A stretch of DNA of 64,000 nt from Alphaproteobacteria bacterium (GCA_046317875.1 JBKCVN010000025.1:15879-79878), one strand, 5' to 3'; positions 8,625-14,024 are shown, numbered from the stretch's first letter. The notes: a model not told the origin generated them from the letters alone. Numbers and translations: made by a program.

Positions 8625-9299
8625 CTATAGTCCGTTTATTTCATCTAGGGTTTCAACCAACGTGTCCCCTGATGCAGCGCCCGCCACTGACCTGGCGCGT
8701 GTTAAGTTTTCTTGTAAGGAAGCCTCGGGGCCCATACTTATGTTCAGGTTGGTGAGTTTGGTGATAAGGGAGCCCTCGTCTGTGCCCACCAGCGTTGTGA
8801 CATTTTGTACTGACTGTGCCAGTGACTCCCCCTCGCCGAGGGAAGTTTTTAGGGCGGTTAATTCGGCTACCACTGATCCCCCTCCCACCCCAATCAGGGC
8901 CTTGGTGGCGTTAATATTTTGCAACAAAGTGTGTGAGGTGCCTAGTGCGCCGGATAGGGTCCCCAAAGCTGTATCCAGGGGCTCACCAAGGGCATCCAGC
9001 GCATCTGCATGATTATAAACGGGCATCAACATGGTCTGCAGATGTTCGATATTCGCCTTAATGTTGCCCTGACGGCCTAATCTACGAAGCAAAGCCTCAG
9101 CATCCCTTAGAACCTGCGCAGGGTTTTCATAAGTAATCCCTAATATCTCGGTGGCCATACGACGAAACAAAGCAGCAGTGGCATTATCCAACACAAATTC
9201 ATGTTGCTGGCGGGGGTTGGCGGCCGCATGGCTGGATTGAAAAGGTCCTTCGATACATATGAATAAAAACATAAATAAAGGAATTATTTTTTTCACCAT
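8625..9299 (-). CDS. Secreted repeat protein, paralog 1 of a 4-gene tandem family (unknown family)
   Basis: Probable start at MVKKIIPLFMFLFICIEGPFQSSHAA (signal peptide). The mature part carries ~17-18-aa units: SLAQSVQNVTTLVGTDEG / SLITKLTNLNISMGPEA / SLQENLTRARSVAGAASGD / TLVETLDEING. Confidence 0.6.
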   Translation of the reverse strand: MVKKIIPLFMFLFICIEGPFQSSHAAANPRQQHEFVLDNATAALFRRMATEILGITYENPAQVLRDAEALLRRLGRQGNIKANIEHLQTMLMPVYNHADALDALGEPLDTALGTLSGALGTSHTLLQNINATKALIGVGGGSVVAELTALKTSLGEGESLAQSVQNVTTLVGTDEGSLITKLTNLNISMGPEASLQENLTRARSVAGAASGDTLVETLDEINGL

Positions 9300-9450
9300 C
9301 AAAGATACCTTTCCTGTTAGAAAACAATAAAAGGTGCCCATCAGAGGTTATAAAAACCCCTTTCCATGAATGCATGGTAAATGTGGTGCGATTTTTTTTG
9401 TTATACCTTTTATTATTTTTTCGATTATAGCCTAGGGCTGGCATGGCGAA

Positions 9451-9482
9451 AAGAAAAAAGAAAACCCATCTTTCGATGGGTT
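9451..9482 (-). terminator. Rho-independent terminator of paralog 2
   Basis: On the minus strand: aacccatc-gaaa-gatgggtt (8-bp stem) followed by ttctttttt. Confidence 0.6.
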
Positions 9483-9516
9483 ATAAGAAAAAGCAGGGTT
9501 TTTATGGATATGGGCT

Positions 9517-11124
9517 TCAAGAAGGGGGTGTGGGTAGGGTTTGGTCTGCCATGATAGACAGGGAGGCGTACGCCCGTGTGTATAAACTGCCCGAAGTGCC
9601 GCCTAGGATACTGGCCACACCTTGGCACAATTCCCAAACGGTTTTTGTGGAAAGATTTGTCCCTTCAGGGGCCCCAATCACCTGCTTTAAAAACTCGAGA
9701 GATTGTTTTGCAGTTACAAGTTGGCTATCTGTGTCGGCGTTAGTAGTTGCCCAATCATTACTATCATCTACTAGGTCATAGGAATCTCCAAGCCCTAGCA
9801 AAGTATTTTGCAAAACGCCATGGATGGCCTCTAATGAACTTATGTCTCCCATATAATCCTCGCCCAAGAATCTATTGGCCACATCCGATAGGTTGGTGTC
9901 TCCCCCCCCACCCCCACCACCAGGGTTGGCAATGGCGTCATCATAGGCTTGGCGCAGTTCCAAAACGTTTGTAATCTCCGGCGGGAGTTCTGATAGAGAG
10001 TCTGTTAATCCAGCGTGTATATTAGGGCCTGTCCCAACCAAGGTTAGAATGTCAGCTGTTTTTTCGGTAAGGGTTGCTCCCGTGCCCCCCAAAGAGGTTG
10101 ATATTGCCGTGATGCCTGCGGCCACATTTGCGGGATCCCCACCTATCGAGGTTTTTATGCTATCTATTTGGCCTATGATATTGCCTCCCGCGCTTCCCAA
10201 TTGGGTGGCTATATCGTTGATGGCCGATGCGACAGTGTCGGAAGTTCCGCCGATAGTTACCAGGATATCTGAAATGCGGGCTGTAAGTGTTCCCGTGCCC
10301 CCCAAATCGCTTTGAGCGGCAGTAATGTTGGCGTAAAGAGTATCTGCTGTACCCCCTACCTCGGTGCTTAAGGTGTTAAGGCGAGCATAAATGCTGGTGT
10401 CAGCACCACCCGCCAGGTCACCCACCGTCCGCAGCAAGGCGAGTGGTGCGGTGGTCGATATACTGGTGCCTCCGATGATTTCCCTTAGGTGATATAAGGC
10501 TTGCTTGCTGGTCGTGATAGTTGTGCCTGTAAATGCGGGTGCGGAACCCCAATCGGGCGTAAGATCTACTTCTTTGTACACATTCCCTGTTTTGGAAAAC
10601 CCTATTTGATTGGTAATAAGGTCATCTTGAACCTGGTCGATATCATCGGGGTTAAGCGTCAGACCATGATCCGTACCCAGAAATGTATTTGCCACATCTG
10701 TGGCGGTATAAACGGTATCTGCATTTTCTAAGGCTGCTTTTGCCGTATCATAGGCGCTGCGCAAGCCTGTAAGGGTGGTAATGTCATCCAAATTACTTAA
10801 AACAGTGTCTATTACAGCCTTCACACTGTTTGGGCTGTCACCAATCGAGGTTCTTATGGCCAAAATGGTACCATATATGGTGGCAGGATCATCAGTGTCA
10901 AAAGTTCCCGCCACGCTTTGGGCGGTTACGCCTAAATAGCTGCAAATGCTATTTATACGTGCGGTGTTAACATGTTCTTCGAGTTGGCCCCCCAGGCGGG
11001 AGCGTAGATTTACAGTGTTGGTCTTGATATTGCCTACATCGGTGAGATAGGGGTAGGTTGCCCATCCCTGGATGGGGGCCCAAAGACCCAGCATCAGTGT
11101 TAGTATTTTATAATAGGATTTCAT
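9517..11124 (-). CDS. Secreted repeat protein, paralog 2 (largest; two ~108-aa modules flanking a central repeat array)
   Basis: GGAGG lies 6 nt before the ATG at 11124. Signal peptide MKSYYKILTLMLGLWAPIQGWA. Central array TLYANITAAQSDLGGTG / TLTARISDILVTIGGTSD / TVASAINDIATQLGSAGG / NIIGQIDSIKTSIGGDPA / NVAAGITAISTSLGGTGA / TLTEKTADILTLVGTGP. A Gly7 run is present. Confidence 0.7.
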   Translation of the reverse strand: MKSYYKILTLMLGLWAPIQGWATYPYLTDVGNIKTNTVNLRSRLGGQLEEHVNTARINSICSYLGVTAQSVAGTFDTDDPATIYGTILAIRTSIGDSPNSVKAVIDTVLSNLDDITTLTGLRSAYDTAKAALENADTVYTATDVANTFLGTDHGLTLNPDDIDQVQDDLITNQIGFSKTGNVYKEVDLTPDWGSAPAFTGTTITTSKQALYHLREIIGGTSISTTAPLALLRTVGDLAGGADTSIYARLNTLSTEVGGTADTLYANITAAQSDLGGTGTLTARISDILVTIGGTSDTVASAINDIATQLGSAGGNIIGQIDSIKTSIGGDPANVAAGITAISTSLGGTGATLTEKTADILTLVGTGPNIHAGLTDSLSELPPEITNVLELRQAYDDAIANPGGGGGGGDTNLSDVANRFLGEDYMGDISSLEAIHGVLQNTLLGLGDSYDLVDDSNDWATTNADTDSQLVTAKQSLEFLKQVIGAPEGTNLSTKTVWELCQGVASILGGTSGSLYTRAYASLSIMADQTLPTPPS

Positions 11125-12590: not shown

Positions 12591-12705
12591 TTATGTCTCC
12601 CTGTTTATTATTTATCTTTTATTTATTTATATTTTAATATTATATAATTATTGAAATATTAACAAATAATTTATTGCCTGATACAGATAATTTTATTTAC
12701 ATAAA

Positions 12706-12733
12706 GAAAAACCCGACAATCGGCGGGTTTTTA
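12706..12733 (-). terminator. Weak hairpin terminator of paralog 4 (degenerate copy of the paralog 3 terminator)
   Basis: aaacccgacaatcggcgggttttt aligns to aaacccaccgacaagcggtgggtttttt at 11329-11360, but the left arm is shortened. Confidence 0.35.
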
Positions 12734-12749
12734 TAGAACTTATTATTAA

Positions 12750-14024
12750 TTATACTTCTGGTGGGCGGGGGACGGTGCGGTTCACAAGAGCTGTGATTCG
12801 TTCTGATAAGGTGCCTGTGCCGCCAATAGCGTTACAAAGAAGTAGAAGGCGGGCATATAGTCCTTTTTCTCCCTCTAACACTGGGTCACCATTTGTATCT
12901 ATTGGGGATCCAATCAACTTATTCAGTTCAGTGAAAGCATCAACCAGGTTTGTAACAGCAGTATTAGTGTTTGGTTGAGTGAAATCGGTGGCAAGTTGAT
13001 ATGAGATACCCATAAGCTCGTTTGTTAAATACACCGTTGCCGCCTCACTAAACCGAGCGGATTCATCTGCTATTCCAGTATACCGCACATCTGAATGGGC
13101 TCCTACGCCTAGCAAAGCATCAATCGCCGTATCGATGGTAAATACGTTGAGTCCATCGAGATAGTTCTTCATATCCTGCACACTTTCGAACGCTGTTGGA
13201 TGTTCGGTAGAGCTTAGATTTGTGTTGAATAGGTTAATCAGGGATCCGTCTGTGTCTGAATAGGTGTCACCTTTAATAAGATTACCGATTGAATAAAGAT
13301 CGGCCATCATGTTTGCCCCGTCAGCGGCGTCTACCTGGGCGGTGATACTCTCGATTTGTGCCTTAAGTGTGCCTGTGCTGCCGATTTCGGTTTTGGCGTT
13401 GGAAATGTTGGTATCAATGGTATCTGTCCCACCAATAACAGTATATGTTGCGTTAAAATCATCCACCATCCCTTTTACTGTTGTGTAACCGGTGGTGCCT
13501 GAGTTTCCAAACCATGTGCTTAGGTTATTAAGATTGGCTGGGGCGGGATCGCTGATTTTGGCTAAAATAGCATTTGTATCGGTGGTGAGAGTGAGTGGGG
13601 TTGTGCCTATTGTGGTTAAGGCAGCATTAATGCCAGTTTTAAGATCGTCAAGGGTCGAATAGGTTGTGCTTAAGTTTGTTCCGTCTAGCTTAAGGGCTGT
13701 TTCCACAGTAGTTAATATTCCATCAGTTTCTTCTCCATCTGCATAGGTTGTTTTTATGTGGTCGAGAGCGGCTTTTATGTGCTCTTGACCTCCTGTGCCT
13801 GTTGTGACGGCTAATTGGGTGACTGCTACGGTGTTGAGCGCTGTGACAAGGTCAGGTCTCACATCGTCAGTTTCGGGGGCGAAGCGTTCATGAACGGCGG
13901 TTAAGTAGGATGTAATAGTTCCTCCTGTGGTGGTAAGGTCTTCTGCCAGTGAGGCCAGTGCAAAGTTTGAAAAGCAGCTAAGGCTTAGGGCCACAAGGCT
14001 GGTTTTTAAAAGGTGTTGTTTCAT
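12750..14024 (-). CDS. Secreted repeat protein, paralog 4
   Basis: Same RBS and leader as paralog 3. Signal peptide MKQHLLKTSLVALSLSCFSNFALA. Repeats TIDTNISNAKTEIGSTG / TLKAQIESITAQVDAADGAN / SLINLFNTNLSSTEH. C-terminal GLYARLLLLCNAIGGTGTLSERITALV. Confidence 0.7.
   Translation of the reverse strand: MKQHLLKTSLVALSLSCFSNFALASLAEDLTTTGGTITSYLTAVHERFAPETDDVRPDLVTALNTVAVTQLAVTTGTGGQEHIKAALDHIKTTYADGEETDGILTTVETALKLDGTNLSTTYSTLDDLKTGINAALTTIGTTPLTLTTDTNAILAKISDPAPANLNNLSTWFGNSGTTGYTTVKGMVDDFNATYTVIGGTDTIDTNISNAKTEIGSTGTLKAQIESITAQVDAADGANMMADLYSIGNLIKGDTYSDTDGSLINLFNTNLSSTEHPTAFESVQDMKNYLDGLNVFTIDTAIDALLGVGAHSDVRYTGIADESARFSEAATVYLTNELMGISYQLATDFTQPNTNTAVTNLVDAFTELNKLIGSPIDTNGDPVLEGEKGLYARLLLLCNAIGGTGTLSERITALVNRTVPRPPEV

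Follow-up and report, generated by a model that had tools for sequence, protein, structure and literature searches.

The 64,000-nucleotide (nt) stretch analysed here (Alphaproteobacteria bacterium, GCA_046317875.1 JBKCVN010000025.1:15879-79878; hereafter the window) carries on its minus strand a tandem array of four genes, named p1 to p4, whose products appear to be Sec-exported proteins of a previously undescribed family, new at the sequence level. These are real genes, functional and constrained, and their products are tentatively read as structural subunits of the cell envelope, sited either on the surface or beneath the outer membrane, where they may co-assemble and be tethered by an OmpA-like small β-barrel outer-membrane protein (OMP). 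Coordinates are those of the whole window; lengths are in amino acids (aa), and pI is the isoelectric point.

12750–14024, minus strand: p4, 424-aa precursor, mature protein ~42 kDa, pI 4.2; full-length family member.
11379–12590, minus strand: p3, 403-aa precursor, mature protein ~40 kDa, pI 4.7; full-length family member.
9517–11124, minus strand: p2, 535-aa precursor, mature protein ~53 kDa, pI 4.1; full-length member with a repeat array.
8625–9299, minus strand: p1, 224-aa precursor, mature protein ~21 kDa, pI 4.8; short, its common part being the repeat module only.
7572–8426, minus strand: OMP gene, 284 aa; downstream of p1.

All four open reading frames (ORFs) were recovered exactly where an earlier note on this DNA had placed four tandem genes on one strand. 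Transcription runs from p4 through p3 and p2 to p1 and then to the OmpA-like gene, with pheS, pheT and lepA diverging from the far side of p4, and the start codons chosen for p1–p4 match the N-termini of their orthologs (p1 has another possible ATG further upstream, at 9341). The proteins are acidic (pI 4.1–4.8), and residue counts gave Thr at 8–16%, Gly at 8–11%, Leu at 11–15%, and Cys, Trp and His each at ≤2.2%, bearing out a composition that had been described as rich in Thr, Gly and Leu and poor in the last three. Between the window and a closely related partial contig (L001), the ratio of nonsynonymous to synonymous substitution rates (dN/dS) was 0.17 for p1, 0.29 for p2, 0.48 for p3 and 0.13 for OMP. 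Since the ratios of p1–p3 lie at 0.17–0.48, the family is under purifying selection, and its genes are functional and constrained, yet quick to change. p2 contains an insert of ~115 aa (aa ~135–215) that is specific to the window and L001.

Relatives were sought with single proteins and with family profiles. An exhaustive phmmer search with p4 over 1.84 billion representative proteins returned two true relatives, at 44% and 28% identity, both on one metagenome scaffold (L004/L005), and two further matches, to repetitive proteins, which were spurious. The scaffold carries pheT-pheS followed by G4-G3-G2-G1-OMP, in 1:1 orthology with the window, at window versus L004 identities of 41% for p4/G4 (range 41–44%; G4/P0003), 38% for p3/G3 (G3/P0004), 30% for p2/G2, 34% for p1/G1 and 47% for OMP. 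A third, closer organism, represented by L001, carries p3-p2-p1-OMP at 79–94% identity, the p3 ortholog (S3) being at 79%. When p2 or the family profile served as query in a word-indexed search, the 85% ortholog alone came back, and scans with family hidden Markov models (HMMs) found no further copies in the 64-kb window and no family members in any of 80 other alphaproteobacterial pheS neighbourhoods. No further relatives were found in GTDB genomes, JGI metagenomes (two scans), viral contigs, phage records or plasmid records, and the family appears lineage-restricted, occurring in three related organisms. The public sequencing runs SRR10823795/98, SRR31514666 and ERR11491265 contain these genes.

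Between the window and L004, the housekeeping proteins PheS, PheT and LepA are 87%, 80% and 96% identical, with synonymous divergence saturated (dS >1), whereas the family orthologs are 30–42% identical, with dN ~4–6 times that of pheS/pheT; the family is fast-diverging, as the earlier note had held. The duplications that gave rise to p1–p4 are older than the split of the window and L004 genomes.

For kinship within the array, mature parts were aligned by the Smith-Waterman method and scored against composition-matched shuffles, giving z = 11.2 for p2–p4, 7.9 for p1–p2, 7.1 for p3–p4, and 3.4–4.4 for the remaining pairs among p1–p4. The profile of p3/p4 aligned with that of p2 from first to last residue (hhalign 98.4%, E 4.7e-15, 396 columns), the p1 repeat region aligned with the p2 array (95% probability, 88 columns), and p1 against p3/p4 gave a weak alignment (84.5%). 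By these alignments, p2, p3 and p4 are homologous over their whole length and p1 is a relative sharing the repeat module only; the earlier description of four divergent paralogs holds at full length for p2–p4, but for p1 only through that module. A common C-terminal module reads L-x-E-[IL]-x2-L-I-G-x-P, followed by [ST]-[LIV]-[YFW]-x-[RK] ... G-G-T and then by [ST]-L-[YWS]-x-R. The motifs quoted earlier are all present, but some of the cross-paralog pairings were off by one unit; in the profile alignment, ATVYLTNELMG of p4 pairs with IHGVLQNTLLG of p2, and SLEFLKQVIGAP of p2 pairs with AFTELNKLIGSP of p4.

The repeat unit has 18 residues and reads [ST]-[LIV]-x3-[LIV]-x2-[LIV]-x3-[LIVM]-G-G-T-x2, with Ser/Thr (N-cap) in front, hydrophobic residues at i, i+4, i+7 and i+11, and then Gly-Gly-Thr; counting the Thr, the core positions are spaced 4-3-4-3-4, which makes 18 residues, or five helical turns. 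The strict motif was counted 3, 4, 3 and 0 times in p1, p2, p3 and p4, respectively, against ~0.02 in shuffled sequences, and units follow one another in two of the proteins.

10024–10395, minus strand: tandem array in p2, 6–7 units, aa 244–367; unit HMM and regular expression for aa 244–349.
8721–8876, minus strand: array in p1, three contiguous units, aa 142–193; unit HMM and strict motif.

The unit HMM covers aa 244–349 of p2, and the seventh unit (aa 350–367) was read by eye. Besides the arrays, the unit HMM found three isolated units in p2 and two in p1, and gave 3–4 weak, scattered matches in p3 and p4. Glycine recurs with a period of 17–19 residues in p1, p2, G1, G2 and G4 (z 5–13; in p2, z = 5–10 at 18–19 residues) and weakly in G3 (z 3.3) and p3 (z 2.5–2.7), and this periodicity is absent from p4. 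The proteins had been said to consist largely of this unit; a true tandem array does make up part of p2 and part of p1, but in p3 and p4 the unit is sporadic. Hydrophobic residues recur in most members with a helical period of 3.5–3.67 residues (z up to 10), in agreement with the helix/Gly-turn reading given earlier to the 4-3-4 spacing. Parts of the proteins are built from short amphipathic helices of ~13 residues, each started by Ser/Thr and ended by a Gly-Gly-Thr turn. Tandem repetition of the units was not found at the DNA level, and the units are therefore taken to be old and diverged. The 4-3-4 hydrophobic spacing is helical, neither alternating nor hexapeptide, and on that ground a β-solenoid reading of the 18-residue unit was dropped.

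Amphipathic helices with regular breakers are also found in apolipoproteins A-IV and E, in coiled coils of the phage T4 fibritin type, and in Baculo_PEP_C. The apolipoprotein/fibritin type has a period of 11/22 with Pro, or heptads, whereas the period here is 18 residues with Gly-Gly-Thr breakers, and p1–p4, unlike these segmented amphipathic-helix proteins, are bacterial and predicted to be exported.

Scans of all members against Pfam, NCBIfam, PHROGs and PADLOC gave nothing above threshold (best PHROGs E 0.026, in 1 of 11 members). Baculo_PEP_C (PF04513) scored 18 bits (E 0.003, 3 of 11 members) against a gathering threshold of 38 bits, and PDB sequence searches with single proteins and with profiles gave ApoA-IV at best (E 0.021); both are sub-threshold and compositional, and they are the sole sequence matches. 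For flagellin and hook-associated proteins, no Flagellin_N/C match was found in Pfam or NCBIfam, and p1–p4 carry signal peptides by rule, which flagellins and hook-associated proteins do not; for phage structural proteins, there was no tblastn match in 50,697 phage records and there were no viral-contig relatives. Literature searches by repeat description and by run accession gave nothing useful. That no family could be named, as the earlier note had put it, was upheld throughout the Pfam, NCBIfam, PHROGs, PADLOC, PDB, phage and plasmid searches.

In p1–p4, the N-terminus combines a charged n-region with a hydrophobic core and with small residues at −3/−1, the predicted cleavage sites being SHA↓A, GWA↓T, TFS↓A and ALA↓S. 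Judged by a manual rule (n-, h- and c-regions, −3/−1 residues, AXA-like site), Sec and signal peptidase I features were found in 8 of 8 window and L004 members; each gene had been credited with a Sec-type signal peptide, and by this rule p1–p4 are probably Sec-exported and processed by signal peptidase I. No membrane-spanning segment was found in the mature parts (maximum 19-residue hydropathy ≤1.6 in the eight window/L004 members, and ≤1.3 in the window proteins). No member has a strict lipobox ([LVI][ASTVI][GAS]C), with a non-canonical lipobox possible in p3/p4; a motif scan found no LPXTG in p1–p4, the RTX nonapeptide GGxGxDx[hydrophobic]x had 0 matches in 8 members, whose Sec-type N-termini also set them apart from RTX proteins, which have no N-terminal signal peptide, the chlamydial Pmp motifs GGA[ILV] and FxxN occurred 0–1 times each per member, and no member matched an autotransporter β-barrel or Pmp domain in Pfam. 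The same absences had been listed in the earlier note, and the Pfam and motif scans agree with it on all of them.

In p3 and p4, the signal peptides (12522–12590 and 13953–14024; MKQHLLKtSl.ALSLsC) are the best-conserved part of the protein, both within and between genomes. Cys17 is invariant in all p3/p4 members, as are A12, L13 and L15; the four residues ending in Cys17 are S-L-S-C or S-L-T-C, so that −3 is always Ser, while −1 is Thr in p3.

The DNA between and around the genes contains the following elements, listed in the order of transcription.

14073–14101, minus strand: promoter-like site for p4, TTGTCA-17-TAACAT.
13959–14054, minus strand: 5′ module of p4 (leader, Shine-Dalgarno site, first 22 codons); direct repeat D1, kept in G4 and G3.
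12707–12732, minus strand: intrinsic terminator after p4, a hairpin of the family also seen after p3, G3 and G4.
12637–12665, minus strand: promoter-like site for p3, TTGTTA-17-TAATAT, read from alignments.
12525–12620, minus strand: 5′ module of p3, second copy of the 96-nt repeat, with 88% DNA identity to the p4 module.
11329–11359, minus strand: intrinsic terminator after p3, AAAAACCCACCGCTTGTCGGTGGGTTTTTTT; 100% identical in the window, L001 and L004.
11172–11241, minus strand: conserved non-coding blocks upstream of p2, TAAATAATAATTCA ... GGATATTTT..AT.TAAA.GTATTT, from the window/L001/L004 alignment.
9454–9482, minus strand: intrinsic terminator after p2, hairpin and T-run.

A promoter-like TTGnnA-17-TAnnAT keeps its position upstream of p4, p3, G4 and G3, and the 96-nt module is equally conserved between species (G3, G4). 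A Shine-Dalgarno site, GGAG(G), lies 5–6 nt before the ATG of p2, p3 and p4, and p1 has a weaker AAGG; the earlier claim of a separate ribosome-binding site for each gene is good for the first three, but p1 has only this weaker one. About 40% of the other window genes have no Shine-Dalgarno site, and its optimal spacing in p2–p4 suggests that these genes are expressed. The AT-rich spacers and the hairpin terminators described for three of the genes were both found, the spacers being 19–36% GC and the hairpins following p4, p3 and p2; no terminator was found after p1, between it and the OMP gene. Promoter, leader and terminator DNA is conserved between the window and L004 although housekeeping dS exceeds 1, and each of the four genes has conserved control DNA to itself. 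From these shared, conserved ends it follows that whole transcription units were duplicated, with the ends staying fixed as the mature proteins diverged; this in turn points to separate, and probably strong, expression.

The hairpin AAAAACCCACCGCTTGTCGGTGGGTTTTTTT is invariant in the three organisms while the adjacent coding sequence falls to 38% aa identity, which is unusually strong conservation for a terminator. Variants of it follow p4 and G4 (in L004, ~11220–11260 and 12650–12690 are the terminator region).

As envelope subunits, p1–p4 would be abundant, non-redundant structural components working outside the inner membrane, in an outer-surface coat or in a layer associated with the outer membrane or the periplasm. 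They may form joint assemblies that the co-conserved barrel protein keeps in place, and their rapid change would reflect exposure to the host, fast divergence being typical of exposed proteins. This is the reading we favour, at a confidence somewhat short of even. OMP, matched by Pfam OmpA_membrane just below the cut-off (E 1.2e-3, 19 bits against 21), directly follows the array in each of the three organisms, its orthologs being 94% and 47% identical, and this position, with no terminator after p1, suggests a link to the envelope. Gram-negative S-layer proteins (Aeromonas VapA, Caulobacter RsaA) are like p1–p4 in their acidic pI, their richness in Thr, Ser, Gly, Ala and Asp, and their near-lack of Cys, and VapA carries a Sec signal peptide. 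As a class, S-layer proteins are very abundant and self-assemble at the cell surface into a two-dimensional lattice. They share no sequence similarity with p1–p4, which are compatible in composition and pI only; S-layers are normally built from one protein, whereas here there are four paralogs, and the RTX repeats and type I secretion of RsaA are both absent.

Several points weigh against an envelope role. The linkage of array and OMP could be mere neighbourhood, and Pfam and motif scans found no anchor (no lipobox, LPXTG, β-barrel, SLH or OmpA-C domain). Signal-peptide cleavage follows a rule of thumb, and the envelope localisation, expression and structure of p1–p4 are predictions from sequence. 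The AlphaFold2 mean predicted local distance difference test score (pLDDT) was 37.9 for both p4 and p2 (6–7-sequence alignments). Finally, nearby genes of type II secretion/type IV pilus type (GspF, split GspE) make release from the cell possible.

The AlphaFold2 models of p4 and p2 consist of many short helices only, at low confidence, and when the low-confidence p2 model was compared with PDB by Foldseek, the top match (E 3.5) was meaningless; as the modelling yielded no solution, the family may hide a new repeat fold. A bolder form of the envelope reading is that p1–p4 build a new hetero-oligomeric surface or periplasmic lattice from an unseen 18-residue fold unit (capped helix and Gly-Gly-Thr turn, 18/5 = 3.6 periodicity), tethered by a dedicated 8-stranded barrel as a host-facing coat; this is unlikely.

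The main rival, which deserves a real but clearly smaller share of belief, is that the proteins are released effectors, exported by Sec and then leaving the cell by type II secretion or in outer-membrane vesicles to act on the host cell. They are soluble, acidic, fast-evolving and without an anchor, the lifestyle is probably intracellular, GspF/PilC- and GspE/PilB-like genes lie 10–13 kb away, and a TolC-like gene is present in the window. However, the GspE-like ATPase is split and may be defective, the window ORFs scanned yielded neither a secretin nor a pseudopilin gene, and Pfam found no eukaryote-like domains; four paralogs strictly conserved as a stoichiometric set, together with a barrel, fit a structure better than they fit independent effectors.

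It is improbable that p3 and p4 are lipoproteins, lipid-anchored through Cys17 instead of being cleaved by signal peptidase I. The invariance of Cys17 with A12, L13 and L15, in the best-conserved region of these proteins, speaks for such an anchor, but S-L-S-C and S-L-T-C depart from the strict lipobox, the hydrophobic stretch runs past Cys17 to an AXA-like site, and p1 and p2 have no equivalent Cys.

Much less probable again is a multi-component α-helical pore-forming toxin comparable to Hbl/Nhe of Bacillus, AhlABC of Aeromonas and SmhABC of Serratia, which, like p1–p4, are tandem, weakly similar (20–30%) helical paralogs of ~40 kDa. The Bacillus Hbl/Nhe proteins carry signal peptides, and their genes are in tandem, resembling the p1–p4 array, which is itself operon-like, with 3–4 divergent all-α paralogs of 40–53 kDa that have signal peptides. 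Pfam and PDB searches nevertheless gave no match to HBL or ClyA-type families, the window proteins have no hydrophobic head or β-tongue, which in such toxins spans ~30–50 residues (maximum 19-residue hydropathy here ≤1.3), and instead of the long helices of the ClyA type they are predicted to have short ones, with a Gly-Gly break every 18 residues.

Antigenic variation, that is, a variable surface antigen generated by recombination among copies as in systems of the msp2/p44 or vls type, is largely refuted, and with it the multi-copy variable antigen proposed in the earlier note. Tandem paralogs with fast protein divergence would suit it, as would the 88% identity of the p3 and p4 5′ ends over 96 nt, which recalls some variable lipoprotein families. 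Against it, copy number and gene order are fixed, orthologs are 1:1, dN/dS is below 0.5, and the 64 kb hold no donor cassettes, no extra copies, and no DNA repeat other than the 96-nt 5′ module; this module is equally conserved between species, which therefore indicates constraint rather than recent conversion. p1–p4 are instead a fixed four-gene set, unlike a variable-antigen family. The Pmp proteins of Chlamydia, Sca of Rickettsia, and OMP-1/Msp2/P44 of Anaplasmataceae are likewise Sec-exported paralogs confined to one intracellular lineage and evolving faster than housekeeping genes, but they are autotransporters or β-barrel porins in which Pfam domains can be recognised and copy number often varies, whereas p1–p4 have no β-barrel and no GGA/FxxN motifs, are predicted to be all-α, and form a set of four with 1:1 orthologs.

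Chance ORFs, decaying pseudogenes, or an origin in a phage or mobile element, which the broken IS30-like element and rRNA genes nearby might suggest, are refuted by conservation: the ORFs are long and intact in three organisms at dN/dS <0.5, their regulatory DNA is conserved, there is no match in PHROGs or among phage, viral-contig or plasmid sequences, and no insertion sequence (IS) element lies beside the array in L004.

The earlier suggestion of an intracellular host was borne out by a TLC-family ATP/ADP translocase gene at 47263–48807 (Pfam E 5e-179), such translocases being a marker of energy parasitism and of an obligate intracellular lifestyle, and by TrcR in the window, which points to an alphaproteobacterium. 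The best PheS matches listed, from 596 alphaproteobacterial candidates, are at ~62% identity, to assorted uncultured Alphaproteobacteria. Because the translocase is present, the host is probably obligately intracellular, and it is very probably an obligate intracellular alphaproteobacterium. The 23S and 5S rRNA genes (2187–5197) have no 16S gene directly upstream, where an unannotated 290-aa ORF (72–944) is found instead; such an unlinked arrangement is typical of intracellular genomes that have undergone reduction. An IS30-like transposase, read by eye in two ORFs (HTH 5795–6019, DDE 6198–6788), lies between the rRNA genes and the array, and this element is absent from the syntenic L004 locus. 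GspF/PilC-like and GspE/PilB-like genes lie at 24446–27301, the latter ATPase being split into overlapping ORFs (26306–27301 and 25611–26354), with an MshE-type c-di-GMP-binding motif in its N-terminus; the split may come from a frameshift in a pseudogene or from a sequencing error. Translocase, unlinked rRNA genes, broken IS30-like element and split GspE fit an obligate intracellular, partly eroded genome.

How these uncultured alphaproteobacteria, living inside cells, present themselves to a host is little known, and p1–p4, well regulated and probably well expressed, offer with the linked OMP a concrete candidate for an envelope or host interface. At the sequence level the family is new, but it belongs to a familiar kind, the lineage-specific exported paralog families of endosymbionts; orphan exported families are common in symbionts, and there is as yet no sign of a new mechanism here.

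The start of the OMP gene (region 8403–8499) shows some irregularities. The sole in-frame start is a TTG (8426). A strong Shine-Dalgarno site, AAGGGAGGA, precedes it by 65 nt (8491–8499), and there is an ATG at 8455 whose 29-nt offset puts it out of frame. Just inside the ORF stands a G6 tract, which in L001 is G7. A true start other than the TTG, a frameshift or a phase switch are all possible.

Two further envelope-related loci were noted in the window. A TolC-family outer-membrane protein (49339–51480) has 713 aa, with the TolC region at residues 247–675 and an N-terminal extension of ~245 aa that matches no model. An Arn-like lipid A aminoarabinose cluster (52142–60519) comprises a PMT_2/ArnT-like glycosyltransferase, an ArnC-like transferase, an ArnB-like aminotransferase and an epimerase/dehydratase. 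In the relative, the flank of the array (L004 17064–21200 / L005 15676–20572) encodes a 464-aa protein with a signal peptide and, by eye, a Sel1-like C-terminus, a 900-aa coiled-coil protein (weak CCDC39 match), and a second small barrel of the OMP_b-brl type.

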